Positions 34,839 through 60,915 are shown, numbered from the stretch's first letter. The stretch: 64,000 nt of DNA from Candidatus Woesebacteria bacterium (GCA_050115675.1 JASFQB010000001.1:96616-160615); one strand, 5' to 3'. Notes: generated by a model not told the origin, from the letters alone. Translations and numbers: made by a program.

Positions 34839-35995
34839 TGTTAAAAACTTCTTTAGTGCCATTTTGGCAGTCACCTAAAATATTGTCTGTAAAAACAGAA
34901 GATGATTTTGCCGAGGTACAAAAACTTTACGATAGTGGTCAAGTGAGGCAGTTTTTTGACTCGGCAGAGCTTGCTATAAACGAACTTTACGACATTTCTT
35001 ACCCAGAGCAAAAAGATCTTCCAAAAAGCCAAAAAACAAATTACGACAATTTTGCAAAAAAATATTTATGGCCAAAAGGTGACTTTGTATTTTATCAGCA
35101 CAATGGATTGCTGGTAAGATTTTTAGGTTGTGAAGAACTTAGGGCGCTGCGCACTTCGCGTAATCGTAATTTAATTACAAGGCAAGAGCAAGATAAGCTT
35201 TACAGATCAAAAATTTTTGTTGCAGGTATGAGTGTGGGTAGTAATATTGTAGAATCGCTAGTAACGAGCGGTGTTGGTGGGTGTCTGGCTCTGGCGGATA
35301 TGGATATAATAGAACCTAGCAATTTAAATAGAATCCGTGTGCCATATTGGCACGTTGGAATGCATAAATGCGACTCTGTCGCAATTAGAATGAACGAAAT
35401 TGATCCGTACTTGCATTTTGATTTGCATAAAAAGGGCATAGACATGCAAAATATCAGGCAAATCATAGAAGAATCCAAGCCAGACATAATTGTTGACGAA
35501 GTAGACCAAATCCAAGTTAAAATTGCTTTGCGTCGTTTAGCAAAACAAAAAAGGATTGCTGTTGTTTCTGCGGCAGATGACGGTGACGATGCGTTGCTTG
35601 ATATCGAGCGTTACGACACCGATGCTGATTTGCCAATTTTTAATGGCTTGGTTCCAGAAGATGTTGTAAGAGGGCTCGAGGATGCAAACGACATGCCGCG
35701 GCAACAACTTGGTTTGTTGATTGGTAAATATTTTGTTGGCTCAAAAAACATACCATTGCGCATGTTTGAGTCGTTGGGTGAGGTTGGCAAAACGTTACCA
35801 AGTTGGCCGCAGCTGGGGAGTGCCGCAACTCAATCTGGCCTAGCGGTCGCATACGCGTGCAGAAAGATTTTATTAAATCAGCCAATTAAAGCAGGCAGAT
35901 CTGTAATAGGTTGCGACGCGGCTCTTTTCAGTGATAAAAGCGATTCAAAAAAACTAAAGATCTACCAAGATCAGTTGGATAAGTTTAAATTCTAG
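34838..35995 (+). CDS. ThiF/MoeB/E1-like adenylyltransferase-fold protein with an N-terminal extension of about 130 aa.
   Basis: Rossmann IFVAGMSVGSNIVESLVTSGVGGCLALADMDIIEPSNLNRI. Overlapping stop/start (TAATG) with the upstream gene. Confidence 0.6.
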   Translation: MLKTSLVPFWQSPKILSVKTEDDFAEVQKLYDSGQVRQFFDSAELAINELYDISYPEQKDLPKSQKTNYDNFAKKYLWPKGDFVFYQHNGLLVRFLGCEELRALRTSRNRNLITRQEQDKLYRSKIFVAGMSVGSNIVESLVTSGVGGCLALADMDIIEPSNLNRIRVPYWHVGMHKCDSVAIRMNEIDPYLHFDLHKKGIDMQNIRQIIEESKPDIIVDEVDQIQVKIALRRLAKQKRIAVVSAADDGDDALLDIERYDTDADLPIFNGLVPEDVVRGLEDANDMPRQQLGLLIGKYFVGSKNIPLRMFESLGEVGKTLPSWPQLGSAATQSGLAVAYACRKILLNQPIKAGRSVIGCDAALFSDKSDSKKLKIYQDQLDKFKF

Positions 35996-37084: not shown

Positions 37085-39229
37085 ATGCTTTTGCTTTTTG
37101 TAACAATTCTGGCATTGTCCGCTCAAATACTCTTGGCTTTGGTTGTGCTACTTAAAGACAGCTCTAGCCTGCGCAATAGGGCGTTTGGATTGCTGTCGAT
37201 GGCGCTACTTATTTGGGCCGCCTTAAATTATTACGATGCAATCCCTGGCATGCCGCATGATATCTATGTTATCCGTTCTATCATGTTTTTTGCTGTACTG
37301 CAAAACATTTTCTTTGTTTTATTTAGCTTCTCTTTAAAAAATAAGCCACTAAAGTTTGGGCTGCGGTTTTGGGCTTATGGATTAATTAGCATAATTGCGG
37401 GAACCATGTGCTATACGCCGTTTATGTTTTCGGAGGTGGGTGTGGGTGGCTACCCTGTTGCGCAGCCTGGGATGCTAGCGTTTTTGATTCATGCAATTGT
37501 GTCAGTTGCTGCTGGCTTTAAGAGTGTTGTTGGCGAATACAAAAAGTCTGTAGGGGTGTACCGCAGGCAATTGTTGTATATCCTACTAGCTTCTGTGGTT
37601 TTGTGGGGAATTGTGCCGCTAACTAATTTTGTTTTGTCTATGACCTTAAGAACTGCTGTATTTTCTGCTGTTAGTCCGTTGTATTCGTTTGTTTTTTCTA
37701 CTTTAATCGCTTATGCAATTATTAGGCATCGTTTATTTGATATTAGACTGGCGATTGCCAGGGCTTTAACGTATCTTTTGCTGTTTGCAACTTTGGTTTT
37801 GGGCTACGCACTAATGGTGTTTGGGATAATTCAGCTGTTTTTTGCAGACCAATCTGGCATAACTCCAGAGCAAAACGCCATTTATATTGCTGCTGCTTTG
37901 TTTTTGGCAGTAACATACGAGCCTTTAAAGCGCTTTTTTAGGCGCTGGACAAACAAGGTTTTCTTTCAGGATGCTTACGACACCAAGTACGTAATAGATC
38001 AAGTGACTTCTGTTTTGGTGCGTGCATCTGGCCTAAGCGATATTTCTAGGCAGTCGCTTGAAGTACTTACTGCGTATTTAAAGGTAGAGTGTGCTGCTGT
38101 AATTATTCCTGATGGAGATGAATTTCCGCAAGGGCGAATCGTAATAGTCGGTCATAAAAAAGTTGATTACAACGATATACTGCAAAAACTGCCGAAAAGG
38201 CTAGCTAGCGTAACGTTAATAGACGATTTTAGCAATCCCGAAAGTCAAACCTACAAACTAATGCGCCTTTATAATATTGCAGCGTGCGTGCGCTTAGAAA
38301 GCTCTAAAGAGCAAATTGGCTACATGATGCTCGGGTTTAAGCAAAACGGTCATGCGTACACCAACCAAGATGTAGAGCTGATTAGAATTGTGGCGGACGA
38401 GTTGGCTGTGGCGGTTCAAAATACGCTGCGTTTTGAAAAGATTGCGGCCTTTAATCAAACTCTTCAACAAGAAATAGAAGATTCTACAAAACAGCTGCGC
38501 GCCAACAACAAAAAACTGCAAGAGCTAGACGAAGCAAAAGATGAGTTTATCAGCATGGCCTCACATCAATTGCGTACGCCGCTTACGAGTGTTAAAGGCT
38601 ACCTGTCAATGGCGTTAGAGGGCGATGCTGGTGAATTAAAGCCAGGTCAAAAAAAGCTGATAGAAGAAGCCTACAGCAGTGCTCAGCGTATGGTTTACAT
38701 GATTTCTGACTTTTTAAACATTTCGCGCATTAAAACAGGTAAGTTTGTTTTAGAACGCGAAACTGTGCGCTTACCTCAACTTATAAAAGAAGAGCTGCCA
38801 CAGATAGAGTCTACGGCAAAGTCGCGTGGCATAACAGTAAACGTGTTTTTGCCAGAGCACTTTCCGGCTTTGCGTCTTGACGAGAACAAGATTCGCCAAG
38901 TGATAATGAATTTTATGGATAACGCTACGTTTTATTCAAATAGTGGCGGCAACATAGACATCGAGCTTACTCAAGATGGTAAAGACGTGATGTTTACAGT
39001 AAAAGACGATGGTATTGGTGTGCCAGACAAAGAACAAGCAAAAATATTTACCAAGTTCTTTAGAGCTTCAAATGCGCGTCATATGCGCCCTGACGGCACG
39101 GGTCTTGGGCTGTTTATGGCCAAAAAAGTCATAACCGCGCACGATGGCGAACTAGTATTTAAAACAGCAGAAAACAAAGGCAGTACGTTTGGGTTTAGGC
39201 TGCCAATTGGGCCAAATAAGGCAAGGTAA
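37085..39229 (+). CDS. Sensor histidine kinase with an N-terminal multi-TM sensor, a GAF-like domain, HisKA and HATPase_c.
   Basis: About 7 N-terminal TM helices, a GAF-like region, H-box MASHQLRTPLTSVKGY and a G-box GTGLGL. Confidence 0.85.
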   Translation: MLLLFVTILALSAQILLALVVLLKDSSSLRNRAFGLLSMALLIWAALNYYDAIPGMPHDIYVIRSIMFFAVLQNIFFVLFSFSLKNKPLKFGLRFWAYGLISIIAGTMCYTPFMFSEVGVGGYPVAQPGMLAFLIHAIVSVAAGFKSVVGEYKKSVGVYRRQLLYILLASVVLWGIVPLTNFVLSMTLRTAVFSAVSPLYSFVFSTLIAYAIIRHRLFDIRLAIARALTYLLLFATLVLGYALMVFGIIQLFFADQSGITPEQNAIYIAAALFLAVTYEPLKRFFRRWTNKVFFQDAYDTKYVIDQVTSVLVRASGLSDISRQSLEVLTAYLKVECAAVIIPDGDEFPQGRIVIVGHKKVDYNDILQKLPKRLASVTLIDDFSNPESQTYKLMRLYNIAACVRLESSKEQIGYMMLGFKQNGHAYTNQDVELIRIVADELAVAVQNTLRFEKIAAFNQTLQQEIEDSTKQLRANNKKLQELDEAKDEFISMASHQLRTPLTSVKGYLSMALEGDAGELKPGQKKLIEEAYSSAQRMVYMISDFLNISRIKTGKFVLERETVRLPQLIKEELPQIESTAKSRGITVNVFLPEHFPALRLDENKIRQVIMNFMDNATFYSNSGGNIDIELTQDGKDVMFTVKDDGIGVPDKEQAKIFTKFFRASNARHMRPDGTGLGLFMAKKVITAHDGELVFKTAENKGSTFGFRLPIGPNKAR

Positions 39230-40807: not shown

Positions 40808-40856
40808 GGCCGTTCTGTGCAAAGTTTTATTTTGCACAGAACGGCCTGTTTTTTAT
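40808..40856 (+). terminator. Rho-independent terminator.
   Basis: 16-bp stem ggccgttctgtgcaaa/tttgcacagaacggcc followed by TTTTTT. Confidence 0.7.
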
Positions 40857-40914: not shown

Positions 40915-42781
40915 CTATTTTTTAATTGTGTTTTTTATTGCACGTCGGCTGCGGGTCCAAGATGTTAATCCTAATCCAATTGCGCCTGTGCCAAATACTG
41001 TGCCAATCGTGGCTTCTATGCCTGTAGATGGCAATTCTTCTGGGGTTTCTGGTTGCTGCGGAGTTTCGGTGCAGCGTTCGTCTCCAACTGGTATGCCTGG
41101 CTTGCACTCCTCTATAGGAGGCTGCCCAACAGTTAACTTGCCAGCACAATCGTCAGACGTTACGTCTGTAACAATTTTGCCGTCTACAGCAAACGCAATG
41201 CTTACACGAGTGGTGTAATCTCCAGGTGTGGCATAGGTGTGAGTTTGGGTTTCTTGGCCTGCACCCACGGTTAGGCTTTGTCCGTCGCCAAAGCTAAAGG
41301 TGTATTGCTTAACAACCACCTGGCCTTGCGTAGAAGGCAAAACGGTGAACTCGTATGTATCGCGGCTTTTTTTAACGATGTTAAGCGACTTGCAGGTATA
41401 GATGTTATCTACGGGCTGCTCGGTCACCTCAAAGTTAGCCTTACAGCTGTCTGCTGTGACGGTTTTTTCTTGACCGTCAACGTCAACGGTTAAGTAGGCC
41501 TGGACACTGTACTTGCCGGCAGTTTGTTGAACGTAGTTTTGGCTGGTGCTGTTAGAAATCTCTTTGCCATCTGCATCTTTAACAACGTAAGTGTATTTTA
41601 CAAAGTCTGCGTTTTCTATTTTGCTTGTAGCTGTAAACTGGTACTGTGTGCGCGAAATAGTTTTAACAGATAGGGCAGAGCACTCATAAACTGGCTGTAC
41701 GCAAGTTTTGTTTGTGGTTACATTTGCGTCGTCTTCTTTAGAACCGTTGTCGGTTTCTACTGTGGCAACGTTGTGCAGGGTATTTTCGCCGCATTCTGGA
41801 AGGCTGTCGTTGCTGTTGACCTTGGCACTAAATATTACCCAGGCGTTGCCGTTTGGTGCGTAAGAGCCAATGTTTACGCCATCTGTTGTAATGTTGTCAG
41901 ATATTTTGGCGCCATCAGGATTTTGGCTGTTGCTTAACGTGCTGCTGCCAGCAACGTAGGCCATGCCTTCTGGAAGGTTGTCTTTGATGACAACGTTGTC
42001 TTGCTGAACAGCGCCGGTGTTTTTGTAGTAAACAATGTAATCAACGACTTCGCCAGGGGTTGTTTCTAGCGAGTCGACCCACTGATTTTGTCCGTGTTTG
42101 CTAACTTTTTTAAACATTTCAAACTTAGCTTCGGCTTTTACCTTAATTTTAAAGGTTACGGCGCCGGCAGAGTTTAAACAGCCGTTCCAGGTGCCAGATA
42201 GGTCTTTGTCGCCAACCTTTACGCCATCTGTGATTAGGCTGTCTGCCAATGTAGTTTGCTGGAAGTTAGTATGTAGCATTGCGGATCCGCTAACATACTC
42301 AAGTTCAACTTTATTGTCACTTGTAAGTTTGGCGGTGTCGTAAACTTCGCCAGGGTTGGTGTTGCTGGCGTTAACAAAGGCAGCAACAGTGGCGTTGCCG
42401 TCAACAAACTGAGGCAATAGAGCGCGCACGGTTACATCTTTGGCTATGCCAACGCCGCTGTCGTTTAGGGTTTCGGAGGCGTTGTTGTGAATGTAAACCT
42501 GAACCTGATACTCGTGGCCTTCAATAAGCTTGGTTTGAGCACTTAAGGCCTCGCCTGTCGTTAAGTCTTTTATAGTGGTAAACTCACGCTCGTCACCATA
42601 ATTTGGGTTGTTGGTTATAGAGTTAAAAACAGGGTAAGAAGCAGGATGCTCCATGGTAAAGGTGGTGCGGTCTGGGCTCCAGGCCATAACTGCCGCAGGC
42701 ACCAAAATAGCCAAGGCTATAATTGGCAATGCCAAAAAGCGCTTGGGCAGGTAGCTTAATAAGTTTTTATACTTTTTCATG
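40915..42781 (-). CDS. LPXTG-anchored surface protein with DUF11-like and PKD-like repeat domains.
   Basis: Signal peptide after MKKYKNLLSYL (RBS gggaga). C-terminal LPSTG motif followed by a hydrophobic segment and an RSRRAIKNTIKK tail. PKD-like YTFSFGDGQ..THTYATPGDYT. Confidence 0.75.
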
Positions 42782-42944
42782 TGTCTCCCTAAACTGTGGT
42801 TAATGTTATTAAAATGTAATTTTGGTATAATTTCAAGTTTTACAAATCGAATTGTTACAAATCGTGTAGTGTTGTTGCCAGGAGGAGCAACCACTTGAGC
42901 TTGTGGCTCGTTGTGGATGCTCCCCCTGGACGGGTGTCAACAGA

Positions 42945-43901
42945 TCAGCATGCGGTGATTCCAGGCGGACAGCCAGCATTTGTCCCAGGGTTAGTGGGGG
43001 CGGGTGCGGCTGTCTCGGGTGGCGGCGTTGAACGCGCCGTCACCTTTGGCGCTGGGGCCGCGGTTGTCTGCGGCACCAGTACGTTTCCGCTGTTCGCCGT
43101 TGGCCGGGTTTCGGCCGTTGGTGCAGCTGGATTATTTATTGGCTTCTCGACACCCGCAGGCTGCGGGGCGGTGGCCTTACCTGGAAGTTCCGGCGGTGAA
43201 GTCGTTCTGCTTTTTGTCGGGGTCTCCGACGGAGTCGCAGATGGCGTCACCCCAGGCGAACCGGACGGTGCGACAGGTGGAAGTAGCGGATTGCCACACA
43301 CTGCCTTGTGGGCAGGTCTGACATCTTCGGTTCCGGGCTCGTGGCCAGGAACAAAGAAGACTACCTCTCCTACGGGAAGAACTTGCGTCTGCCAAGCTTG
43401 CACATCCGCGCTGTCTTGTGGACAGTAGTGGTTGAGTACCAGCATGGTGGCTGGCAGCTCGATGTACATTAGCTGACTAACGTAGTCGCTTACCCGTTGC
43501 ACGGGAGTCAGGTTGTCCCAATCGGGCACCGTCTCGTCAACGAGATAGTAGTCCTTGTGGGCGTTGTAGAATCGGTCAAGTTTTTCAGCTTCAGCCTGGT
43601 GCAAAAGCAGCCATTCTGAAGCCATTTGAGGGCCATTTTCCTCGGCAAACCCCAGGTCATCATTTGCCTTTGGGGTTTCATCGCGCAGCCAGCATTCGCC
43701 GGGTCCTACTTCGCCTTGCGGCTGAGCAGGAATCGTACTGTCTATCACCGTAAAGTCGCCAAGACTGACGAAAGACGGTGATGGGGAAGCATTGGTGGCA
43801 ATGTTGCCGCCGTAACTTCCGCCAAAACTGCCAGACGTCGCCATGGTCAAAAACGTAACCACGGCTAGCGACGCAAGCAGCCATTCGGTGATGCGTCGCA
43901 T
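42945..43901 (-). CDS. Secreted Pro/Thr/Ala-rich protein (hypothetical), high GC.
   Basis: Signal peptide MRRITEWLLASLAVVTFLTMATSG. Long PT-rich C-terminus. GC is about 60%, against about 42% for the flanks. Confidence 0.45.
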   Translation of the reverse strand: MRRITEWLLASLAVVTFLTMATSGSFGGSYGGNIATNASPSPSFVSLGDFTVIDSTIPAQPQGEVGPGECWLRDETPKANDDLGFAEENGPQMASEWLLLHQAEAEKLDRFYNAHKDYYLVDETVPDWDNLTPVQRVSDYVSQLMYIELPATMLVLNHYCPQDSADVQAWQTQVLPVGEVVFFVPGHEPGTEDVRPAHKAVCGNPLLPPVAPSGSPGVTPSATPSETPTKSRTTSPPELPGKATAPQPAGVEKPINNPAAPTAETRPTANSGNVLVPQTTAAPAPKVTARSTPPPETAAPAPTNPGTNAGCPPGITAC

Positions 43902-43910
43902 GACGCCTCC

Positions 43911-44630
43911 TTACTGGTTGTCGTCGGTGTTGGGCTGTTGTGGCGCGCGCCGGTAGGCCGGACCGGTACGAACTCCCTGACGGGGGTCGGTGCCATCCGG
44001 GTTTGCGGGGCGTCGCGCTTGTGTTGTCCTTGCGGGACGTGCTGGACGATCGGGTCGACGCGTGCGGTGACGCTGCGGCACCTGGTGCTGCGTGTCAGCT
44101 CCGGGCTGGACCTGCGGAAGCGGAGCGGTAGCGCCGTTCCAGTCCTCGTCCTCCCCGCGGTAGTAATCGTCCGAAAAGTCCGTCAGAGGGTTCTGAGGTG
44201 CGTTTGCTTGCGGGTGAGCCTGCTGACGAGCGTGCGGTGCGCGCGTGGCATTGCTGCCGTCGTTCGCATCGTTGTCGTCAGACGAACGCTCCCGCCGCTG
44301 CTGAGCGCGTTCCATGTTGCGCCGCCTGGTGTGCATGCGCGCACGAACCCAGCTGATGCACGGCTTCCTCCCGAAGATCACGAACAAGATTATCATTACC
44401 GTGGCGATCTTGTTGTCGTTGATCCATCCGAACAGCCCCGAGATCAGGCCAAGCAGTCCGTCTCCGAATCCGGGGGCCGTATAACTTCCAGAGATGTTGA
44501 CGTTTTCGAGGCCACTGATCTTGTGAAGCTCGGCCGAGATGGCCGCAGCCTGCGTAACGTCGCTGTTGAGCGATGCCTGGTTGATGTACCAGGAGTAGGC
44601 GAGGTTGAGAACTACGATTGCCAGGGCCAT
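43911..44630 (-). CDS. Membrane protein with an Arg/Pro/Gln-rich disordered C-terminal tail (hypothetical), high GC.
   Basis: Two TM helices. The start at MALAIVV is uncertain; the ORF-track start at 44879 lies in AT-rich, probably non-coding sequence. Confidence 0.4.
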   Translation of the reverse strand: MALAIVVLNLAYSWYINQASLNSDVTQAAAISAELHKISGLENVNISGSYTAPGFGDGLLGLISGLFGWINDNKIATVMIILFVIFGRKPCISWVRARMHTRRRNMERAQQRRERSSDDNDANDGSNATRAPHARQQAHPQANAPQNPLTDFSDDYYRGEDEDWNGATAPLPQVQPGADTQHQVPQRHRTRRPDRPARPARTTQARRPANPDGTDPRQGVRTGPAYRRAPQQPNTDDNQ

Positions 44631-44933
44631 GAGCCCGGCGTTCTTTCTGATGAACTTAAACACGGCTTTCTCCGTTCTTGATCGATGTCTGATCTGTTGT
44701 ACGCTGCCTAGTGCAGCAACACACCTTAAAATGGGGGGAATTTTAAGGCGCGTTGCCACACTAAGTGCGCACGAACTGTAATAATTCGATTTGTTAATGT
44801 ACTCGCTTCTGACCTCCACCTCTGTTGTCCTAAGAAGCGATACTGTTATAAATATAACACTTTTAAGCAAAAAAGTCAATACTTTGTTGTGTAATGTAAA
44901 AGGCGGGGACGTTTGAAGATCCCCGCCTAAGAG

Positions 44934-45269
44934 CTATGCTTTGTTGTCGAGCTTTTGCATTACCCTATGTACCAGGGTGGCAACTTGGTTTTCGATTGCC
45001 TTACTGTGATCAGCCTCGCGCTTGTCGCGATCGGCTTGAGTCTCGGAGGCTCTTTCTTGATAGGTCTTGTCGATCACGCCCGACCTCATGTCGCGCCGTA
45101 CCCTGGTTTCGATGTTTTCTCGGCTAAGCTTACCAAGATTTACGCCGTTGGCAAGGTGACCAACAAGCCAGTTGTTCCAGTAGGTGTCCATGGCCCTAAC
45201 TGCTGGCGTCCAATGTGCCAGCATTAGGGCAACAACAAAAACTGCGCCAACCGCAAAAATACAGGTCAT
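44934..45269 (-). CDS. Small membrane protein (hypothetical).
   Basis: N-terminal TM helix. High-GC block. Confidence 0.35.
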   Translation of the reverse strand: MTCIFAVGAVFVVALMLAHWTPAVRAMDTYWNNWLVGHLANGVNLGKLSRENIETRVRRDMRSGVIDKTYQERASETQADRDKREADHSKAIENQVATLVHRVMQKLDNKA

Positions 45270-45376
45270 TATTCCTCCAGAGTCTCGTGTAGACTTGCAA
45301 TATAGTAAGGCTTTGGTGATTGCTTGTCAATAGAAGTACTGCCCCGTTTTGTTTGTTAAGCAAAACGGGGCAGAGT

Positions 45377-46297
45377 CTAGCCAAAACTTAGGGCGGCAAC
45401 AGTTGCTCGCCTGTGGTCTGGCCACATATTACCAATGGTAAGTTCGCGCCTTCGAGGTTTGATAAACCTAGCATTGTTCTGTGTGTCTAGCTCGCCAATT
45501 TGGCTCATACTCAGTTTGACAACAGCGGTGTAAACTGTGGTCCAAAAGTTTAGCGTGTGCACTTTACTGGTCGGCCTGATGGCGCGAACGATTTTAAAGC
45601 CTGCCTCGGGCGGAGTAAAAATTCCAGCCTCAAGCATTAGGATTCTGCGTGCTGCCGCATGAATACCTTTAACCGTAACTGGGCGGTTGCTCGCCTTCCA
45701 CTGCGGCATGGTCAGGCCGTAGTCAGCTGGTAAAACATAGCCACCAACAAGTGCCGGAATCGTTCTCCCTTCGGACTGCCTGTCGATGACAAGAAAACTA
45801 TTATCTGGAGTTACAAGCACCACATCTGTAACAACGTTATTGCCAAAATAAAAACCGTAGCCAATGCCCGTAGGCATGCCAATGTCAGGATGACAAAGCA
45901 ATCTTACGACGTTAGGATTAATGGGGCGACCATGCAGATCAAGGGCCAGCCCAGAATCCGAAAACACTCTACTAAGCTGTTCTGGAACCTGCCAATTGTT
46001 CTTGTGGCTGGTGTTATAGTCTAGATCGATGTCCCGGCTGTGCATGAGTCGGCGATTAGGATGTGATGGAACGTCGTAACCCTCTGGAATAAGATAGCGT
46101 CCATTTGATCCGCGAAGCCTTGCGATACTATGTGGACTTCTTACGGTCCAGCGAGCATTCTCTCTTTTGTGTCCAGATGGTTTAACATTATTAGCGATTT
46201 CATCTAGATCTTCATCTGTGTATTCGCGTCCTCCATATCCCTGACCCCAAAGCCTATGGTCTGGAACAATAGCATAGTCTTGCTCTGCAAAGTTCAC
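45377..46297 (-). CDS. Hypothetical protein, possibly a degenerate Nudix-like fold.
   Basis: Weak Nudix-like segment (LVIDRQSEGR..ALVGGYVLP...AARRILMLEAGIF) lacking a canonical REx2EE box. Confidence 0.35.
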   Translation of the reverse strand: MNFAEQDYAIVPDHRLWGQGYGGREYTDEDLDEIANNVKPSGHKRENARWTVRSPHSIARLRGSNGRYLIPEGYDVPSHPNRRLMHSRDIDLDYNTSHKNNWQVPEQLSRVFSDSGLALDLHGRPINPNVVRLLCHPDIGMPTGIGYGFYFGNNVVTDVVLVTPDNSFLVIDRQSEGRTIPALVGGYVLPADYGLTMPQWKASNRPVTVKGIHAAARRILMLEAGIFTPPEAGFKIVRAIRPTSKVHTLNFWTTVYTAVVKLSMSQIGELDTQNNARFIKPRRRELTIGNMWPDHRRATVAALSFG

Positions 46298-46393
46298 AGC
46301 GGTGCTCCAATCCCTAGATGGTGACTACTACTAGTGTAGCAAAAAGCGCACCAGATAAAATAGTGCGCTTAGTGCTAATTGTCATAAATGACG

Positions 46394-47665
46394 TTATTTT
46401 TTAAAGATGGTGTTTTTGATGTCGCGACGAGTTCGTACGTAGTAGCGACCAGCAGCAGCTATGCTGCCTGCGCCCAATGCACCACCTAGAAGCTCGGCTG
46501 GGCCTGTGCTTGGTAGCTCTTCGGGCGTTTCAGGAGTTTCTTCGTCGTCGATGGTGATTGTTGTTTCACAGTTAACGCTTTTAACCTCTTTTGCAATGTT
46601 AAAGTTGGCTGTTGCGACAATGGTGTATGTGCCAGCTTTTGCATATTCGTGCTTGGTTGTTACGGTTGTGCCGTCGTTGGTTGTTAGGTCTTTTGCAGAT
46701 TGACTGTCGCCAAAGCTAAAGTTTGCAGTTTTTAGAACAGCTCCACCGCTAGCAGAAGTTGTGGCAGTAAACTCGTAGTTTGTGCGAGTTATTTTTTTAG
46801 CGGTTAGCGCAGAACATTCGTAAATTGGGGTAGGTGGTTGAGGAACGTCTACTAACTTTGTACATTCAACGCGGGTGTCGCTTTTTTCTGATCCGTTTAC
46901 GTTAAAGTAAACTGTTGCTTTGGCTGTATATTGGCCTGGTGCGTAGGTGTGAGTAACTTCTTGGTCGAAGTTGCTTGTTATGGTTTTGCTTTTGCCGTCA
47001 CCAAAGTCGTAAACGATTTTTGTAACGGTAGCTCCATCTTTTACATAGGGAGTAGCTACATACCTGTAAGTAGAATCGCTAACTTTAGTTTGCTGAAGCA
47101 TTTCACACTTGTAGCCTGGGCTTTTGCCCCAAGATGGGTTACCACAGGCTGTTAAAACAGCAAGCTTCATGCTGTGGTCGTCGCTGTTAAATACAGCGTA
47201 GCCATCAAGAGAGTTAGCAGCAAAGCTTATTTGAGTTTTGCTGTAGTAGTAGGTGTTTCCAGCGATGTTAATAGTGGAACGGTTGGTGCTGCCAGATTGG
47301 CGGCCAAGACTATAGGCGTCGGTGGCAACAATTGTGCCGTCGTCGGTTTTAATCTCTCCGTTTTTGTAAACTGTAACGTGTTGACTTTGGTTGGCGACTT
47401 CGTTGCCAGTTACACCCCAGTTGCCGTAAATGTTTTGCAGGTCGCCGTATGGGTTTTGTTGGAATTTAGACCAAAAATCACCCAAGTTGCTGTAACCACA
47501 TTTAATAACCGCGTTGTTATCGCAGTCTACGGCTGCATTTGTTTTTGCAGGGTTAAATAGGCCAAATGTAATGGCCGCACCGCTTAAAATCACAAAAGCA
47601 CTAGCAACAAGTATTTTGCTGCCGGCTGCATGACGAACATAATTAAAAATAGTCTTAACTTTACG
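46394..47665 (-). CDS. LPXTG-anchored surface protein with PKD-like repeats, paralogous to 40915..42781.
   Basis: Signal peptide. PKD-like YDFGDGKSK..THTYAPGQYT. C-terminal TPEELPSTG followed by a hydrophobic segment and an RRDIKNTIFKK tail. Confidence 0.7.
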   Translation of the reverse strand, partial: RKVKTIFNYVRHAAGSKILVASAFVILSGAAITFGLFNPAKTNAAVDCDNNAVIKCGYSNLGDFWSKFQQNPYGDLQNIYGNWGVTGNEVANQSQHVTVYKNGEIKTDDGTIVATDAYSLGRQSGSTNRSTINIAGNTYYYSKTQISFAANSLDGYAVFNSDDHSMKLAVLTACGNPSWGKSPGYKCEMLQQTKVSDSTYRYVATPYVKDGATVTKIVYDFGDGKSKTITSNFDQEVTHTYAPGQYTAKATVYFNVNGSEKSDTRVECTKLVDVPQPPTPIYECSALTAKKITRTNYEFTATTSASGGAVLKTANFSFGDSQSAKDLTTNDGTTVTTKHEYAKAGTYTIVATANFNIAKEVKSVNCETTITIDDEETPETPEELPSTGPAELLGGALGAGSIAAAGRYYVRTRRDIKNTIFKK

Positions 47666-47775
47666 CATAACACCTCCTAATGTGTCTGTATAGTACACTA
47701 TCACATATGTGCAAAAAAGTCAATTTACTTACGCTTAAAAACTTTGCGTTTTATGGTGTATACTAGAGTTGTTTT

Positions 47776-48177
47776 ATGAAAAAGAATAAAAATTTACCAC
47801 TGTTGATGAACGCATCAATAAAAGCGGGCTTTCCTAACCCGGCCGAAGACAGCGGGGGAGTGGGGCTGGACCTAAATGACTTGCTGGTTAAGCACCCTGT
47901 TAGTACATATTATTTGAGGGTTGAAGGCGATTCTATGACGGGTGTTGGTATAAATACGGGCGACATTGTAGTGGTGGACAAATCACTACAGCCGCGCAGC
48001 GGAGATATTGTAGTGGCAGCTGTAGAGGGCGAATTTACGCTGAAAAGACTTAAAAAACAGGGACAGCAGGCATGGTTGTTAGCAGAGAATCCAAATTATC
48101 AACCAATTGCCTTGCACGAAGCTCAAGATGCTCAAATATGGGGTGTGGTCACTTTTTGGATACACAAGCAAAGATAA
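47776..48177 (+). CDS. umuD: UmuD-like S24 peptidase (LexA C-terminal domain only).
   Basis: Catalytic Ser in VEGDSM and Lys in the LKRL region. No N-terminal HTH. Confidence 0.7.
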   Translation: MKKNKNLPLLMNASIKAGFPNPAEDSGGVGLDLNDLLVKHPVSTYYLRVEGDSMTGVGINTGDIVVVDKSLQPRSGDIVVAAVEGEFTLKRLKKQGQQAWLLAENPNYQPIALHEAQDAQIWGVVTFWIHKQR

Positions 48178-48274
48178 TTTTAAAAAAGAGGCCCGCACAA
48201 AGTGGGCTGAGTCAAGCGGTATTTAGCCACTTGATGCGAGCCTCCTTGTTCGAGCCCCCGACCTTGTCGGATTA

Positions 48275-49363
48275 TTAGGCGGTTGCAAACCGCTTGTTTA
48301 GTACTGCATTGCAGATGCCGTAAAGTATGTGGGTCATGATGATCGCGGGGATCACAATTGCCACGGTGCCCGTCGCCAATCCAAGTGACGCGGCGGTCAG
48401 ACCGTTTTGGTGACCGATGGCCAGGTACAGCCTGTCTTGCTTGGAGTATCCGCTGCCAATGGTGACTAGTGGAACCACAATTGCCTGCGAAATGAATGCC
48501 ATTGCTCCCAGGGCAAGACCCCAGAACATTTGGCTGTCAAGGCCATTGCTGGTGACGTGCTCAAAAAGCAGCCATCCCACAATTGTGCCAGCCGCCAAAA
48601 ACGAGAATCGCGCGGCGGTCTCGAGCTTGGCGTTGATCCAATCGTAGGCCTTAGTCTCTGGGCGAATGCAAAGCCCCATCAGGGCCAGGCCAAACATCCA
48701 GTACCAAGTTGCCCCGGCCAGAATGGCGACGACGAGCAGAATTGCCGTAGAAGCGATTTTTCTGAACATGCTACCACGGTATACCAGTCGCCACATCCAG
48801 ACAGCAACAGCCACTAAGGCAAGGTTGAAGAACAGGTATAGTCCGTAGCCTGTAGCGCTGTCAATCTGTACGCTGTTGATCTGGATTCCCAGGTTAAACT
48901 TAAAGGTTTGTTGCGTGATGACCAGCATGACTGTCAAAAGCACCGTAACTGGGTCGTCCAAAGACGACCAAGCGCGAAGTAGGTTGTCGGCCTTCTTAGA
49001 GATGTGTGACGAACCAACCAACGCTCCAACAGAGAGGGGGTCGATCTGCGCCACAACCAGTCCGAGCACCAAAAACATTGGCTGTCCGCTGGCAAAATAC
49101 AGCGCGATCCCGATGATGAGCGCCTTAACAAAGACGCCAACCGTGACGGCCAGTGCGACGACTCGCCAGTCACTACCCTTTAGCTCGTTTTTGTCGATTC
49201 CAAAGGTGCAGCCAACCAGGCCGGCGCCTAGTAGTAACGCGTAAAACCAGGGGTTACCTTGAAGGTTAATGCTAGAGGAGTTCCCGATTGCGCCAATAAT
49301 TAGCGTTAGTATTACCAGTGTGCGTATGCCCATTTTTTGAACGATGTTAAGCATTGTGTGCAA
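48275..49363 (-). CDS. Cation:proton antiporter-like polytopic membrane transporter.
   Basis: About 11 TM helices with a CPA-type fold pattern. GC is about 50%, higher than the flanks. Confidence 0.55.
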   Translation of the reverse strand: MHTMLNIVQKMGIRTLVILTLIIGAIGNSSSINLQGNPWFYALLLGAGLVGCTFGIDKNELKGSDWRVVALAVTVGVFVKALIIGIALYFASGQPMFLVLGLVVAQIDPLSVGALVGSSHISKKADNLLRAWSSLDDPVTVLLTVMLVITQQTFKFNLGIQINSVQIDSATGYGLYLFFNLALVAVAVWMWRLVYRGSMFRKIASTAILLVVAILAGATWYWMFGLALMGLCIRPETKAYDWINAKLETAARFSFLAAGTIVGWLLFEHVTSNGLDSQMFWGLALGAMAFISQAIVVPLVTIGSGYSKQDRLYLAIGHQNGLTAASLGLATGTVAIVIPAIIMTHILYGICNAVLNKRFATA

Positions 49364-49665
49364 CCTCTTTCGTGTATGACGAAAAGACTGTTATATAAAA
49401 ACATGAAATTGTAAAAAAGTAAACCCCTTGCTGCAAGATGACAAGGGGCAGGTTGTTCTACTCTGGCGGGATACCTCCGATTGCCATCATAAGCTGTGTA
49501 AATCGGTATACAATGGCATCTTCGCGACTTGTTGGAGTATCGCTTGGCTCGTTGCTTTGCGTGGTTGGCGGGTTTGTGTTTTGGTCGGCTTGATCTTGGT
49601 TGGCCTTGACCTGCTGCGCCATGGTTTTTCCTTTCGCCCGAAAGAACTGTTTTATAATACAACAC

Positions 49666-50970
49666 ATGACACGTAAAGCAAAAGTTTTTGCATTAGTAGA
49701 TTGCAATAACTTTTTTGTAAGCTGCGAACGAGTTTTTAGGCCAGACTTGTGGAACAAGCCCGTGGCTGTTTTAAGTTGCAATGATGGCTGCATTGTGGCG
49801 CGCAGCAACGAGGTAAAACAAATTGGAATTCCTATGGGTTCGCCTTTGTTTAAGGTTAAAGATGTTGTGGCTGCAAACAATATAACTTTGTTTTCGGGCA
49901 ATTTTGCTTTGTATGGTGATTTTTCGCAACGAGTGGTGCAAATTCTGCAATCTGCCTGCCCTGATGTTGAGGTGTACTCTGTTGATGAGTCGTTTTTAGA
50001 GATTTCTGCTTTAAATATTGATAATTATCACGATTGGGCAGCAAAACTCAGAGCGAACATTTTGCAATGGACAGGCATACCTGTATCAATAGGGGTGGCG
50101 CCTACAAAAACTTTGGCAAAGGCGGCCGCCGAATTTGCTAAAAAGACTTTTTTGCCAGATGGCGTGCATGTTTTGTGTAGTGACGGGCAAATTTCGCCTA
50201 CCGAGGCTAAAAAGCGCCATGATGATCTTTTAAGATGGCTGCCGATAGATGATGTGTGGGGTGTGGGGCGCAGGCTGGCTCCAGTTTTGCGGCAAAAGGG
50301 CATATCTACGGCCCAGCATTTAACAGAGGTGGGCGATAAATGGGCTCAGCAGCAGCTAAGTATATCTGGTGCCAGGACTGTGTGTGAGCTAAGGGGTGAG
50401 TCGTGCATTCCAATGACAAAACAAGAGCCTCAAAAAACTATAGCCAGCACAAGATCTTTTGGTCATACCGTGCGTAATTATTACGAATTAGAAGGAGCGA
50501 TCGCTACTTACGCAGCTCAGGCAGCGGCAAAGTTGCGTAATCAAAACAGTGTTGTAAGTGCGATTTTGGTGTTTTTGCGAACAAGTAAAAAATACGACAA
50601 AAAATATGGTGCTAGTATTGTTGTGCAAATACAGCAGCCTAGTGCAGACACAGGGGCAATTATTGGTGCCGCATTGAGCGGTTTGGCCTCTATTTACGAT
50701 AAAGATTTAGCATATAAAAAGGGTGGAATCGTGCTGTTGGATTTAGCGCCTGCGACTGCATGGCAGATGTCTTTATTGGATCAAAATCCAAGTAAAATTG
50801 ACCAGCAAGTTGCATTGATGAGCGCCGTAGATACACTAAACCAAAAATACGGCGTGCGTCTTGTGCAACATGCTAGCGAACAGATTGCCGGAAAAAGTTG
50901 GCAAAGCAAGTCGCAGCTGTGTAGCCCTGCGTACACCACAAATTGGCTCGCATTACCAAAAGTTGGGTAA
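49666..50970 (+). CDS. umuC: Y-family DNA polymerase (UmuC/DinB-like).
   Basis: FALVDCNNFFVSCERVFRPDLWNKPVAVLSCNDGCIVARSNE...IGIPMG (palm catalytic Asp/Glu motifs), SVDESFLE. Confidence 0.85.
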   Translation: MTRKAKVFALVDCNNFFVSCERVFRPDLWNKPVAVLSCNDGCIVARSNEVKQIGIPMGSPLFKVKDVVAANNITLFSGNFALYGDFSQRVVQILQSACPDVEVYSVDESFLEISALNIDNYHDWAAKLRANILQWTGIPVSIGVAPTKTLAKAAAEFAKKTFLPDGVHVLCSDGQISPTEAKKRHDDLLRWLPIDDVWGVGRRLAPVLRQKGISTAQHLTEVGDKWAQQQLSISGARTVCELRGESCIPMTKQEPQKTIASTRSFGHTVRNYYELEGAIATYAAQAAAKLRNQNSVVSAILVFLRTSKKYDKKYGASIVVQIQQPSADTGAIIGAALSGLASIYDKDLAYKKGGIVLLDLAPATAWQMSLLDQNPSKIDQQVALMSAVDTLNQKYGVRLVQHASEQIAGKSWQSKSQLCSPAYTTNWLALPKVG

Positions 50971-51624: not shown

Positions 51625-51700
51625 GGCCCCTTCGTCTAGTGGTTAGGACATCAGGTTTTCATCCTGAAGATCGCGGGTTCGAGTCCCGCAGGGGTCACCA
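51625..51700 (+). tRNA. tRNA-Glu (anticodon TTC at 51658-51660).
   Basis: Acceptor GGCCCCT/AGGGGTC, anticodon stem tcagg/cctga with loop ttttcat, T-arm GCGGGTTCGAGTCCCGC, encoded CCA. Confidence 0.85.
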
Positions 51701-53249
51701 TAAGAGAATTTTTTGCTTCCAGTAATTGGAAGACCGGCGACACCCCTGTAAAAAGGGGTGTTTTTTGATTTCGACCAACCAAATCTGCATAGGTTGGTAA
51801 TGTACGGAAAATCAGGCCGAAAAACTGGGCTTTTTTGACCGGGTCAATCTGTTTTACGACCAGTTCATCCAAGTTTTCGACGAAATATTTTACGCGGGCA
51901 ATTACCCGGTCTATACTCATTGGCTTCTTAGCTTCCATCTTCATCCTTTCGAGTGACAGCTGCTTAATTTGTTTATCTACGTCCTCTAGCTCTTCATTTA
52001 GGTGCTGCTGAGCCGAAGGGGCGATTGTAGCGAAGTTTTTGGCCATGCTGCGAGCCTGCTGCGTAAGGTCATTGATCTTACTGTCGATTACGGCGATTTG
52101 CGCATCATGATATGCCACACGCTTTTCATAAGCATCTTTAATGGCAACGAACAGCGTGTCGATGTCTTGCTGCGAAAATTCCAAACCGCCAACAAATTCT
52201 AGCACGCGCATTTCGAGCTCTTCTTTTTTAACGCGGAACTTATGTTCGCGCTTGTCGCAGTGGTAATACGAATAGTAATTGCCGGTTTTGCCGCGAGAGG
52301 CACTGCCAAGCAGTGGCTTGTTGCATTCCGGGCACATTACAAAATTCTTGAATGCAAAGTCCGAGTGGCGCGTGCCTTTTGGCGTGGCATTTTCCGGCGC
52401 TACATTATCCGTAATCGCAATCTTGTTGTTGGGCATTTCTATAATTACTCGCTTGCCCTTGTTGGCGCGGTTGAATAGGTCGATTGAAACAATCCCATCA
52501 AACATACATTTAACCGGCTGGCCTTGTGTCCATTTCTCGACATTTATGCCTGCATAGATTGGATTGCGTACCATTTTCCAGAGCTTCTTTTCGTCCAGCA
52601 GGGCTGGCTCGGTTCGCCTAACAATGCGCGACCTGTCGTCTTTTGCGCGGCGTAGCTGCGGCCGTCCGCGATAACCCATATCGTTCAACTTCTTGGCAAT
52701 CTCGCGGTCGCTAAATTGGCCGCTGGCACGAAGTTCAAATAGCGCAACAATGTATTTAGCTTCCTGCGGGTGCGGCTTTAATACCATACGCTTGCCGTGT
52801 TGTGTTTCTACTTTTTCGCTCACTAGGCCATACGGTGCGCGCCGCATCCAATAGCCCATTTGCGTGTAGCGGATTTCGGCACCAATGACGCGGCTCAAAA
52901 TATCTCGCACTTCGTCTTTTGACCGTTCGGCTTCCAGCATTTCCGATTTGCGGCTTGGTGAGTATTTGCTCCATTTGTATTCCTGCCCGAGGTGCGCCAG
53001 TGTGTTGACCTGCTCGTGGCTAATGACGCCATAGGTATCAACGAGCGTCACGCGGCATTCTTCTTTGCTGGCCGATTCCAAGAACACAAAGAACTTTTTG
53101 ATGGTGATTCCCCGGTTATCGGCGTAGCGTTCGATCTGCTCTTTTTGCGCTTCCGGCGAGTCGCCGTCGGTGCCTTGCTTGGTGGTCGAAACACGAATCG
53201 CGGCAACTGCATACTTACTATTTTGTGGCTGCATTTTCTCCCTCCTCAA
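51651..53249 (-). CDS. Large serine recombinase (phage-integrase type).
   Basis: N-terminal resolvase catalytic domain (AVAAIRVSTTKQ), recombinase domain, zinc ribbon (CPECNKPL...YYHCDKREHK) and a coiled-coil. The last ~16 codons overlap the 3' half of tRNA-Glu. Confidence 0.85.
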   Translation of the reverse strand: MRREKMQPQNSKYAVAAIRVSTTKQGTDGDSPEAQKEQIERYADNRGITIKKFFVFLESASKEECRVTLVDTYGVISHEQVNTLAHLGQEYKWSKYSPSRKSEMLEAERSKDEVRDILSRVIGAEIRYTQMGYWMRRAPYGLVSEKVETQHGKRMVLKPHPQEAKYIVALFELRASGQFSDREIAKKLNDMGYRGRPQLRRAKDDRSRIVRRTEPALLDEKKLWKMVRNPIYAGINVEKWTQGQPVKCMFDGIVSIDLFNRANKGKRVIIEMPNNKIAITDNVAPENATPKGTRHSDFAFKNFVMCPECNKPLLGSASRGKTGNYYSYYHCDKREHKFRVKKEELEMRVLEFVGGLEFSQQDIDTLFVAIKDAYEKRVAYHDAQIAVIDSKINDLTQQARSMAKNFATIAPSAQQHLNEELEDVDKQIKQLSLERMKMEAKKPMSIDRVIARVKYFVENLDELVVKQIDPVKKAQFFGLIFRTLPTYADLVGRNQKTPLFTGVSPVFQLLEAKNSLMVTPAGLEPAIFRMKT

Positions 53250-53383
53250 AGATCATGTCCAGTAGTATGTCGGCCAGAATTTCCAGCTTTTCACCATCTC
53301 CAAGACCGACAATCTCAGGTAATTCTGGCTGATTATTTTGTGACCCTCTTGCTGTGCTCATAGAAGTAAACTAGCTTTTATAG

Positions 53384-53399
53384 TTATAGTATACTATAA
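53384..53399. repeat. Perfect 16-bp palindrome TTATAGTATACTATAA in the AT-rich gap.
   Basis: Read directly from the sequence. Lies between the recombinase and the Replic_Relax gene. Confidence 0.6.
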
Positions 53400-53737
53400 C
53401 AAATAGAGATAGTTAAAGCGTTTTAGGGCACTATTTACACCCTTGCGGGCTAGGGTGTAAATGCAACTATTTCTAATCTGTTAGCGCTTGTTTTTCCGTG
53501 TTACCTATCTTATAAATATATGGGTAGGTGGGGTTGGTTGGAATTGTATGTGCCCATTATACCTGCATACTTAAAACTATACCAAGAACAAAAGCTAAGA
53601 CAGAGAAAATAAAGAACCTAAAGAAGAAAACTAATAACCATGCTTAAAGAACAACTAACTCTGAACCTACCTACTAATACCTATCTAAGAATACGCATAC
53701 TAACAAACTGACGAATAAACGTAAATGTAATCCGTAC

Positions 53738-54667
53738 ATGACGAAATTACCAAAACTAACCAGAAAACAAGGCGAAATACTAGAACTGCTCTACAGGTTC
53801 AGATTCCTAAACCGCATCCAGATACAAGCACTACTACTGCACAAAGACCCGAAAACCATTAACCTGTGGTTGCGTGATCTGCGCTCCAAAGGCTACGTCG
53901 AATGGATATACTCAACCCACTTCGCCGAGAAGACCAAACCAGCTGTCTACTACCTCGGACTAAACGGTGTACGATATCTGCGTACGCTTACTAGGGAGGA
54001 AGAAGTAACGGGCGACGATCCAGAGACCGACGAGGGCGGCGACCCTAAGCCTACACCAGCCTACCCGCCAGAAGAACTGCGCAAACGCTACAAAGAGCCA
54101 ACCCGCAGTCAAACCTATATTGACCGCTGCATCCTGATAGCAGACTGCGTACTTGCTCTAGACCAAGCGAGCTTTGACAACCGGATGCAAGGCAAAAGGC
54201 TCAGCTATTACATTCAGACAGAAGCAGACTACTTGCTTGAACGCAGCTACTACCATTTTGTACTGGATATTGACGACGAACTAATCCACCCGCACCTTTT
54301 GTTTTGCCAGGACAAAACAAACAAAGACGGCGAGGAAATAACCCTAGAAAGCTATATCCTGGAAGTATTTGATCCAACCCTGCCGCGCTACCGTATGAAA
54401 AAGCGCCTTGGTGATTACGTGAAGTTCCTGGATGACGAGGGTGACACGTGGAAAGAGCAGACGGATACCGACAAGCTGCCAGTTATCCTATTTGTCTACC
54501 CCCGAACAACTGACCTCATTTATGCGAAACGAAGAACACGAAAACTCGTTGCCGACGCGTGGTATTGGGAGGATGACGACACCGAAAGGCCACGGGTGCG
54601 GTTTACGACGATGGAGAAGTTGAAACAAAGCGGCTTGTTAGCGAAGGAGATTTGGGAGCAAGCCTGA
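53738..54667 (+). CDS. Replication-relaxation (Replic_Relax) family protein.
   Basis: N-terminal wHTH LTRKQGEILELLYRFRFLNRIQIQALL...LRDLRSKGYVE typical of PF13814. Confidence 0.55.
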   Translation: MTKLPKLTRKQGEILELLYRFRFLNRIQIQALLLHKDPKTINLWLRDLRSKGYVEWIYSTHFAEKTKPAVYYLGLNGVRYLRTLTREEEVTGDDPETDEGGDPKPTPAYPPEELRKRYKEPTRSQTYIDRCILIADCVLALDQASFDNRMQGKRLSYYIQTEADYLLERSYYHFVLDIDDELIHPHLLFCQDKTNKDGEEITLESYILEVFDPTLPRYRMKKRLGDYVKFLDDEGDTWKEQTDTDKLPVILFVYPRTTDLIYAKRRTRKLVADAWYWEDDDTERPRVRFTTMEKLKQSGLLAKEIWEQA

Positions 54668-54786
54668 CTGTCCGCCTCCGCGTCTTTTATCTGGCCGAGA
54701 GCTATTGTAACTACCCCCCCATCCTGTACAATAGAAACCATAAGCGTAGAATAGATATGAGTGTACGAAGGTAATAGAAAAACGGT

Positions 54787-56316: not shown

Positions 56317-56345
56317 TCTATGCCGCGAATAAGGGGAAGAGTATC

Positions 56346-57360: not shown

Positions 57361-57462
57361 TTTACCGCTTACGCCCATTTTGCCCATGCCGATGGATTAC
57401 TGCGGACGTTTCGGACCAGAGAGGGCCGACCATAGATATGCACAAGAAAGAGATAAATAACC

Positions 57463-57580
57463 ACGGTTTCATCCGCGGCGGCAACTGGAACAACGGCAGC
57501 AACGCGGGTGCGTTTACGCTCAACTTGAACAACACGCCGTCGAACACGAACACGAACATCGGGTTCCGGGTTGCCAGGAG
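57463..57580 (+). repeat. DGR template repeat (TR), AAC-codon-rich.
   Basis: TR reads ...aac tgg aac aac ggc agc aac..aac ttg aac aac..aac acg aac acg aac atc ggg ttc cgg gtt gcc agg ag. VR differs almost only where TR has A. Confidence 0.8.
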
Positions 57581-60908: not shown

Positions 60909-60915
60909 GCTAGTC

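Follow-up and report, generated by a model that had tools for sequence, protein, structure and literature searches.

A GC-rich islet of orphan envelope genes within a conserved cell-surface locus of a Candidatus Woesebacteria genome

The genes described here form a GC-rich patch in a 64-kb stretch of DNA from a Candidatus Woesebacteria bacterium (GCA_050115675.1, JASFQB010000001.1:96616-160615; hereafter the window, in which all positions are counted from the first letter). The GC content of the window is 45.1%. Six genes, all on the minus strand, follow one another in the order LPXTG_B-P4-P3-P2-P1-LPXTG_A. An earlier note on this DNA had regarded the four inner genes as a high-GC insertion encoding a Pro/Thr-rich protein with a signal peptide, a membrane protein with an Arg/Pro-rich tail, a small transmembrane protein, and a Nudix-like protein, and all four are present as described. 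P1 (42945-43901; GC 0.58, GC content at third codon positions [GC3] 0.57) encodes a secreted protein of 318 amino acids with an N-terminal hydrophobic signal or anchor. Its globular region of ∼190 residues, with conserved Cys and His, is followed by a 128-residue tail (23% Pro, 16% Ala, and 15% Thr), which is closed by a conserved CPPGI(T/S)xC motif. P2 (43911-44663; GC 0.62, GC3 0.73) starts at a GTG codon and encodes 250 amino acids, comprising two membrane helices and a 132-residue tail (15% Arg, 13% Ala, 13% Pro, 12% Gln, and 11% Asp) that varies in length among relatives. The open reading frame of P2 spans 322 codons in full, and the first 72 of these are leader and not protein. P3 (44934-45269; GC 0.52, GC3 0.57) encodes 111 amino acids: a single membrane helix at the N terminus and, beyond it, charged helical sequence. 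P4 (45377-46297) encodes a cytoplasmic protein of 306 amino acids in which topology prediction finds no membrane helix; its C-terminal part has a Nudix fold with a degenerate, interrupted Nudix box. The hypothetical proteins PVI21_00830 and PVI21_00845, encoded on a 203-kb contig of a Candidatus Woesebacteria metagenome-assembled genome, match P1 and P4, respectively, at every residue.

The outer two genes had been described as paralogs encoding PKD/DUF11 LPXTG proteins, and this description holds. LPXTG_A (40915-42780, minus strand; 621 amino acids) begins with a signal peptide, contains DUF11 and PKD domains, and carries LPSTG near its C terminus, after which come a hydrophobic stretch and a basic tail. 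LPXTG_B (46394-47668, minus strand; 424 amino acids) is a sortase-type surface protein with two PKD domains. The two are 33% identical over 265 residues (E 9e-25), and the C terminus of each consists of PETPEELPSTG, a hydrophobic stretch rich in Gly and Ala, and basic residues (RSRR/RTRR...KK). With a signal peptide and a sorting signal in each, both are predicted to be sortase-anchored LPXTG surface proteins. The limits given earlier for these genes, 40915-42781 and 46394-47665, needed only slight correction. Downstream of LPXTG_A, a perfect 16-nt inverted repeat at 40808-40846 forms a bidirectional terminator-like hairpin, and a second, minus-strand terminator (40897-40865) adjoins it.

The age and integrity of the locus can be judged from related assemblies. 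A second assembly (SRR11713588) contains 20,957 nt at 100% identity to the window. A 27-kb contig from a different sample (SRR28815410), referred to here as L002, aligns with the window at 75%-87% nucleotide identity and has the identical gene order, umuC-umuD-LPXTG_B-P4-P3-P2-P1-LPXTG_A. It is the sole relative whose contig includes both flanks, and the block occupies the same site in it. Short contigs of two more distant relatives, L003 and L007, also have P1 following P2. Between the window and L002, the difference at four-fold sites is 0.54 in umuD, 0.54 in P3, 0.52 in P4, 0.48 in LPXTG_B, 0.44 in P2, 0.33 in umuC, 0.27 in P1, and 0.21 in LPXTG_A. P3 evolves fast (48% identity to its L002 counterpart), and the LPXTG_A proteins are 95% identical. 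A divergence of 0.21-0.54 from a syntenic contig means that the block is older than a deep split. The same six-gene order in an independent, diverged assembly rules out both a recent insertion and a chimera in which a high-GC contig was joined into a low-GC genome. Mis-assembly at the junctions had been raised as a possibility, and the abrupt change in GC is the only observation in its favor. The same junctions occur in the second assembly, at 100% identity over the 20,957 nt, and in the diverged relative from a different sample, and the junction regions are conserved noncoding DNA with promoters and hairpins; the probability of a chimera is therefore vanishingly small.

The locus is a recombination mosaic. 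The divergence from L002 of LPXTG_A and P1 (0.21-0.27) is about half that of P2, P3, P4, LPXTG_B, and umuD (0.44-0.54). The switch in divergence lies inside the P2 tail, which suggests a recombination tract exchanged between the lineages of the window and L002. In L002, P2 also has an in-frame change of TGG to TAG at ∼9700-9760 (codon ∼176 of P2 in the window), and the same frame is conserved downstream to the DDNQ stop. The TAG codon is one of three things: a recent nonsense mutation, a sequencing error, or a site of read-through.

Two long open reading frames on the plus strand overlap the GC-rich genes, one of 177 amino acids opposite the P1 tail (42895-43428) and one of 247 amino acids opposite P2 (43938-44681). 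In relatives, the frame conserved as protein is that of P1, antisense to the first of these, and the sense frame of the P2 tail is conserved up to the DDNQ stop common to the window and L002. The plus-strand frames are spurious by-products of GC content, as had been proposed.

The GC enrichment itself is less extensive than first described. A content of 58%-60% had been attributed to the whole interval 42895-46330; this is correct for 42895-44663 (59.9%), but the remainder, 44664-46330, has 47.9% and the whole interval 54.1%. No part of the window is richer in GC than P1 and P2 together: a 1719-nt frame there reaches 0.603, the mean of the window being 0.450 (standard deviation 0.045). On a finer scale there is one peak at 43.0-43.3 kb (0.65) and another at 43.85-44.35 kb (0.67-0.68), and the five highest 300-nt frames of the window all fall in the latter. 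GC is also raised at 48.3-48.9, 55-58, and 63.3-64 kb.

To separate the contribution of amino-acid content from that of codon choice, the GC expected for each gene was recomputed from its amino acids with the codon usage of a core reference of 29 genes at 1-39.3 kb (mean GC3 0.394, standard deviation 0.046). P1 has a GC3 of 0.571 (z +3.9), an amino-acid effect of +0.083, and a synonymous excess of +0.070. The corresponding values are 0.725 (z +7.2), +0.066, and +0.124 for P2 and 0.571 (z +3.9), +0.031, and +0.055 for P3. P4 shows a GC3 of 0.440 (z +1.0), an amino-acid effect of +0.035, and a synonymous excess of +0.019, and GC3 is 0.412 in LPXTG_B and 0.481 in LPXTG_A. Because P4 is compositionally ordinary, the GC-rich block consists of three genes (P3, P2, and P1) and not four. 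The amino-acid effect rises to as much as +0.14 within the tails of P1 and P2, and the synonymous excess in their N-terminal halves, which are not of low complexity, is +0.073 and +0.143, respectively. Since the tails carry the amino-acid effect while the ordinary N-terminal halves retain the synonymous excess, the anomaly is roughly one half protein composition and one half codon choice. Enrichment at third positions is also seen in L002 (0.506 in P1, 0.648 in P2, and 0.613 in P3, against 0.40-0.49 in the flanking genes), and GC3 of the P2-P1 pair is high (0.51-0.63) in the more distant L003 and L007.

The synonymous bias of P1-P3 matches that of local mobile DNA rather than that of Actinobacteria. 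Comparable bias is found in a membrane-protein gene at 48275-49363 that L002 lacks (GC3 0.631, synonymous excess +0.095) and in an island at a tRNA-Glu gene (synonymous excess +0.068 to +0.092), both described below. The composition of the block had been called actinobacterial-like, but the GC3 of P1-P3 (0.57-0.73) lies below the 0.75-0.95 of the actinobacterial homologs of P4. Tetranucleotide usage agrees with the codon data but contributes little further. The raw correlation between block and core is 0.03 (null mean 0.885, minimum 0.72), but the signature deviates no longer once it is normalized for GC; at 2.3 kb this normalized signature has low power and does not separate core, island, or Actinokineospora as source.

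P1, P2, and P3 are orphans. Three clusters matched P1 among 5.8 billion protein clusters, namely itself and relatives at 81% and 60% identity. Four matches to P2 were found among 1.84 billion representatives, namely itself and relatives at 64%, 30%, and 30% identity, and its two-helix N-terminal part is conserved among these relatives. No actinobacterial match was obtained for either protein in these collections, nor for P3, which was compared with local loci and hidden Markov model (HMM) libraries. Profile searches of P1-P3 against PDB sequences gave nothing below E 0.1, and nothing significant was found in Pfam, NCBIfam, or PADLOC. P3 has a marginal match in PHROGs (phrog_18252, E 0.0033), a family without assigned function. 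Scans of viral contigs for the P1 and P2 families found no relatives. Structure prediction for P1 from three sequences gave a mean predicted local distance difference test score (pLDDT) of 33.5.

P4 has a different set of relatives. In its AlphaFold2 model (mean pLDDT 75.6), the C-terminal half has a Nudix fold, and Foldseek searches of the PDB matched YmfB and ADP-ribose pyrophosphatases over ∼160 residues (probability 1.0, E ∼1e-5). Pfam gave no match to P4 at E 0.1 and P4 falls below the threshold of PF00293, which some of its homologs do carry. The Nudix box, canonically GX5EX7REUXEEXGU, is split in P4 by an insertion of ∼20 residues, and it reads RRILMLEAG where homologs have RRKLAEETG; one glutamate of the catalytic EE pair is gone. 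Ten clusters match P4, itself included, and two of these are named NUDIX hydrolases of Actinokineospora. In species-representative genomes, seven loci were found: one in Saccharimonadales (44% identity) and six in Pseudonocardiales (two in Actinokineospora and one each in Lentzea, Saccharopolyspora, Amycolatopsis, and a metagenome-assembled genome). P4 is 36%-44% identical to the Pseudonocardiales proteins over 93%-99% of its length, and 58 positions are invariant in the family. One actinobacterial copy belongs to a prophage that also has genes for WhiB, terminase, portal, and capsid, and another to a conjugative-type element that includes TraA-like and WhiB genes. Homologs were also found on two Amycolatopsis plasmids and one IMG/VR contig; 50,697 phage records gave no match. 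The actinobacterial copies have a GC3 of 0.75-0.95. The Saccharimonadales copy is GC-rich (0.655, GC3 0.79) in a locus of housekeeping genes with a GC content of 0.537 (L008 ∼4900-9000, DATEFB010000023.1) and has the look of a later import of this Nudix family, into a different lineage of the candidate phyla radiation. A crude neighbor-joining tree joins P4 of the window with that of L002 on the deepest branch, which does not belong to the clade of Actinobacteria.

P4 resembles the Nudix hydrolases of Pseudonocardiales plasmids and prophages (e.g., NZ_CP024896 and NZ_CP045481) in fold and in the 58 invariant positions but differs from them in its local, low-GC composition, the lost glutamate of the EE pair, and its branch outside their clade. 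We conclude that P4 did pass between phyla, in one direction or the other, but that the transfer is old. Its history is separate from that of P1-P3, and it is fully adapted to local composition. Gene exchange occurs between Saccharibacteria and their actinobacterial hosts, and the present case is similar in that a rare P4 family is common to genomes of the candidate phyla radiation and actinobacterial mobile elements; it differs in that the organism is labeled Woesebacteria and the GC-rich P1-P3 lie outside the shared set.

These relatives of P4 bear on the origin proposed in the earlier note, in which the organism would be an epibiont of high-GC Actinobacteria and would have taken P1-P3, or the whole block, from its hosts. 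The elevated GC3 of P1-P3 fits such a source, and many actinobacterial proteins have Pro/Thr linkers and Arg/Pro tails. The adjacent P4 shares 36%-44% identity with Nudix proteins from Actinokineospora, Lentzea, Saccharopolyspora, and Amycolatopsis, whose copies ride on plasmids, a prophage, and a conjugative-type element, and the Saccharimonadales homolog is still GC-rich relative to its locus. However, the search of 5.8 and 1.84 billion proteins for P1 and P2, respectively, gave no actinobacterial match, no homolog of P1-P3 adjoins any actinobacterial homolog of P4, and the GC3 of P1-P3 is below the actinobacterial range. P4 itself, the one part of the proposed link that stands, is not GC-rich and branches outside the actinobacterial clade. 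The block is, moreover, older than the split from L002, and no host, actinobacterial or other, is known for Woesebacteria. A host-derived origin of the GC-rich genes is consequently quite improbable.

The route of entry proposed with it, recombination between the paralogous flanks, is unlikely in view of their arrangement. The paralogs are direct repeats, so recombination between them would delete the block and not insert it; they share 33% protein identity, and their longest DNA matches are 22 nt. Within 40.9-47.7 kb there is no integrase, transposase, tRNA target, or flanking direct repeat of the mobility type; the recombinase and tRNA-Glu nearby belong to the separate island at 51701-63126.

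P2 and P1 form a compact unit with its own putative signals. A terminator-like, GC-rich hairpin (44901-44928, minus strand) directly follows the P3 stop, and a promoter-like site, TTGACT-17-TATATT with a TG extension (44851-44879, minus strand), lies upstream of P2-P1. The site is kept in L002 as TTGACA-17-TATATT, and its −35 region resembles a site upstream of LPXTG_B (repeat D4). The 180-nt leader of P2 folds at −71.8 kcal/mol (z −7.4) into a 5′ stem-loop and a near-perfect hairpin of ∼32 bp (44699-44772, minus strand). The L007 leader folds with z −9.2, with a hairpin in the same place but of different sequence; in the fold of the leader alignment, which has 33 predicted pairs, 5 have changes on both sides in L007 with pairing kept. 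The TAA stop of P2 overlaps the AGGAGG ribosome-binding site of P1, an overlap that implies translational coupling, and P2-P1 can thus be described as a putatively coupled pair. After the P1 stop stands a conserved stem-loop, CCAGGGGGAGCA ... TGCTCCTCCTGG (42878-42929, minus strand), which shows a compensatory change of A-T to G-C relative to L002. A scan of 40.7-47.9 kb against Rfam gave only sub-threshold noise. An integron cassette (attC) reading of the hairpins was discarded, as the near-perfect leader hairpin, inspected by eye, has no RYYYAAC/GTTRRRY ends.

The pair is bracketed by an imperfect inverted repeat with arms of 28 nt. Arm A (44770-44797) is part of the P2 leader and precedes the start codon by 107 nt; arm B lies at 42839-42866, between the P1 stop and the LPXTG_A start, upstream of the promoter region of LPXTG_A. 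The arms are complementary at 24 of 28 positions; the next-best partner in the 64 kb reaches 19 of 28, and the 12-nt core of the repeat occurs only twice in the window. They bracket the GC-richest 1.9 kb exactly, with the promoter-like site outside. L002 has both arms in the same places. Position 15 is T in both arms of the window and C in both arms of L002, so that pairing is preserved, and the predicted duplex has −26.8 kcal/mol in the window and −28.6 in L002. The four differences between the arms are themselves conserved in the window and L002. Arm A is invariant in L007, although P2 there is only 30% identical, and is mostly unpaired in the local fold of the leader.

Two modes of action can be envisaged for the arms. 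In one, P2-P1 would be a cassette acted on as DNA, either moved by a transposase in trans or flipped by a recombinase as a switch of surface genes. Mobile insertion cassettes of the Bacillus cereus group are passenger genes between transposon-type inverted repeats and are moved in trans; P2-P1 is similar to these in that two foreign-looking genes stand between 28-nt imperfect inverted repeats with no transposase inside. The uniqueness of the arms in the window, their placement around the GC-richest 1.9 kb with the promoter outside, their conservation in L002 with the same position changed in both, and the presence of recombinase and transposase genes within 10-15 kb would fit such a cassette. 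Unlike a mobile insertion cassette, P2-P1 has no target-site duplication at the repeat, and the window contains no second copy and no matching insertion-sequence ends. A metagenome scan with the repeat motif gave six matches, all in one coding stretch of an unrelated large Rhs/YD-like gene, which were dismissed as chance. Orientation and position are constant in all assemblies seen, and the nearby recombinase sits in an island absent from L002, with no conserved recombinase adjoining the locus. Each arm also keeps its own differences, which are conserved between genomes. Action at the DNA level is, on these grounds, very improbable.

In the favored reading, the arms may act at the RNA level, pairing in the P2-P1 transcript to give a 5′-3′ panhandle that would control its processing or stability. 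In the icaR mRNA of Staphylococcus aureus, the 5′ untranslated region pairs with the 3′ one, and RNase III processing stems flank rRNA genes. The P2-P1 unit resembles these in having complementary segments in the 5′ leader and past the last stop, with one co-varying position; it differs in that its arms are 1.9 kb apart around two genes and in that it is known from sequence, in two complete loci. A bolder proposal is that P2-P1 is a self-contained cassette of surface-protein genes, of a new kind, whose ends would bear a cis-regulatory RNA and panhandle not seen before, the arms and leader hairpin forming a functional device: an mRNA panhandle for RNase III-type processing that couples expression to LPXTG_A, or else DNA sites for inversion or mobilization of surface genes. 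This proposal we regard as unlikely. Operator sites for a response regulator encoded nearby were also considered, but no such regulator was found beside the histidine kinase at 37085-39229.

Overall, we lean, with moderate confidence, toward the view that the orphan envelope genes P3, P2, and P1 (42.9-45.3 kb) make up a small islet, old and restricted to its lineage, in a conserved six-gene, same-strand cell-surface locus, GC-rich by virtue of tails and synonymous bias and likely an old import that was domesticated. Roughly one half of the excess comes from the disordered tails of P1 and P2, whose Pro, Ala, Thr, Arg, and Gly residues need GC-rich codons; the other half reflects the preference of P1-P3 for GC-ending synonymous codons, as in the mobile DNA of the window. 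Entry would have been from a moderately GC-richer pool, probably the lineage's own mobile elements, before the split from L002, and domestication would have followed. Signs of the latter are a host-type promoter, a conserved structured leader, the coupling of P2 and P1, and the bracketing 28-nt repeat. The most economical reading is that the mobile gene pool of the lineage itself supplied these genes long ago and that their disordered tails add the local GC peaks. From its anatomy, P2 would reside in the membrane with both ends cytoplasmic, and P1 would be exported and project a Pro/Thr-rich stalk; topology and neighbors suggest that these two, the small membrane protein P3, and the two sortase-anchored PKD proteins are part of a cell-surface apparatus.

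The islet may be compared with horizontally acquired islets of orphan surface or membrane genes known elsewhere. It shares with them atypical composition and codon use, lineage-restricted envelope proteins, and a surrounding region rich in mobile DNA (the tRNA-Glu island, an insertion sequence, and, at umuDC, a gene between umuD and umuC). In contrast to such islets, P1-P3 have no integrase, tRNA gene, or direct repeats of their own and no empty-site relative, and their position is conserved in a well-diverged relative, with regulatory signals of native type.

Several observations weigh against an acquired origin and the roles suggested for these genes. Acquisition is deduced from composition alone: no donor or mobility gene could be tied to P1-P3, and the genomes seen include none that has the locus without them. 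The GC-normalized tetranucleotide z-score signature of the block (0.37) is inside the null range of the core (mean 0.41, minimum 0.15). High GC3 has been kept across three or four diverged lineages, which selection on native genes fits equally well. Because P1 could not be modeled, the function suggested for P1-P3 draws on predicted topology only, and the putative panhandle draws on two full loci and one co-varying position.

Some of these points would be expected if there had been no transfer and P1-P3 were native, their GC content arising from amino acids and from synonymous selection, for example on mRNA structure or on translation of the disordered tails. Amino-acid content does explain one half of the excess, L002, L003, and L007 have retained the excess through heavy turnover at synonymous sites, the normalized tetranucleotide signature is in the native range, and the promoter is of native type and the elaborate leader conserved. 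The synonymous excess is, however, equally strong in the ordinary, nonrepetitive N-terminal halves, and the same excess is typical of demonstrably inserted DNA in the window. In addition, a simple decay estimate from four-fold-site divergence allows for an ameliorating import, with only ∼40% of the initial excess lost since the split. A native origin is therefore doubtful, though to be taken seriously, and an old, domesticated import remains the preferred interpretation.

The earlier note had recognized a real anomaly but over-extended it, and the source it proposed is not supported. Bacteria of the candidate phyla radiation are thought to depend on hosts, and their surface proteins are likely points of contact; a locus of two sortase-anchored PKD proteins and fast-evolving orphan envelope genes is a reasonable candidate for a host interface. 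The composition of the locus also calls for caution, as GC peaks of 65%-68% in a genome of 45% GC can come half from disordered Pro/Ala/Arg tails and need not mean a high-GC donor. P4 is the one real link with Actinobacteria and a small data point on gene flow with these bacteria. The only part that could yield something new is the architecture of inverted repeat and structured leader. Ig-like/PKD-type secreted surface proteins are also part of the Pam pilus operon of Saccharimonadia and Microgenomatia (bioRxiv 10.64898/2026.03.03.709456). Membership of the present locus was considered and rejected: LPXTG_B scored 26.3 bits against the PamR model NF058578 (cut-off 300) through one Ig-like stretch of 56 residues, Pfam and NCBIfam scans gave no pilin or chaperone match at the locus, and its surface proteins, unlike those of the Pam pilus, are LPXTG anchored.

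The neighboring mobile DNA deserves description in its own right. An 11.4-kb island (51701-63126) begins exactly at the 3′ end of the tRNA-Glu gene (51625-51700), has a TCACCA repeat at both ends, and is absent from L002. It encodes a large serine recombinase (51651-53249), a Replic_Relax protein (53738-54667), a retroelement, an IS3-type transposase (59104-59946), a PIN protein, and a Fic/DOC protein. At 54787-58122 (GC 0.54-0.58), what looks to be a diversity-generating retroelement encodes a target protein (54787-56316), whose domain is FGE-sulfatase/C-type-lectin-like, along with a reverse transcriptase (∼56085-56978) and the accessory protein bAvd (57613-58122).

Closer to the locus, a gene on the opposite strand (48275-49363) for a multi-pass membrane protein of 362 amino acids splits umuD (47776-48177) from umuC (49600-50970). 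The region (48181-49644) is absent from L002, and the protein has no family match (GC3 0.63). Since umuD and umuC are adjacent in L002, the gene represents either an insertion in the window or a deletion in L002.

Elsewhere in the window, a gene at 3915-7598 encodes a CHASE/PAS histidine kinase of 1227 amino acids whose N-terminal region is PorA-like, and another at 151-948 encodes a chorismate mutase/prephenate dehydratase. Both are unusual in a reduced genome of the candidate phyla radiation, and the taxonomic label therefore merits a check. At 33330-35995, an unannotated protein of 502 amino acids is followed by a ThiF/E1-like protein (34838-35995) that matches many models of E1-E2 anti-phage defense and may be part of a ubiquitin-like conjugation defense system.

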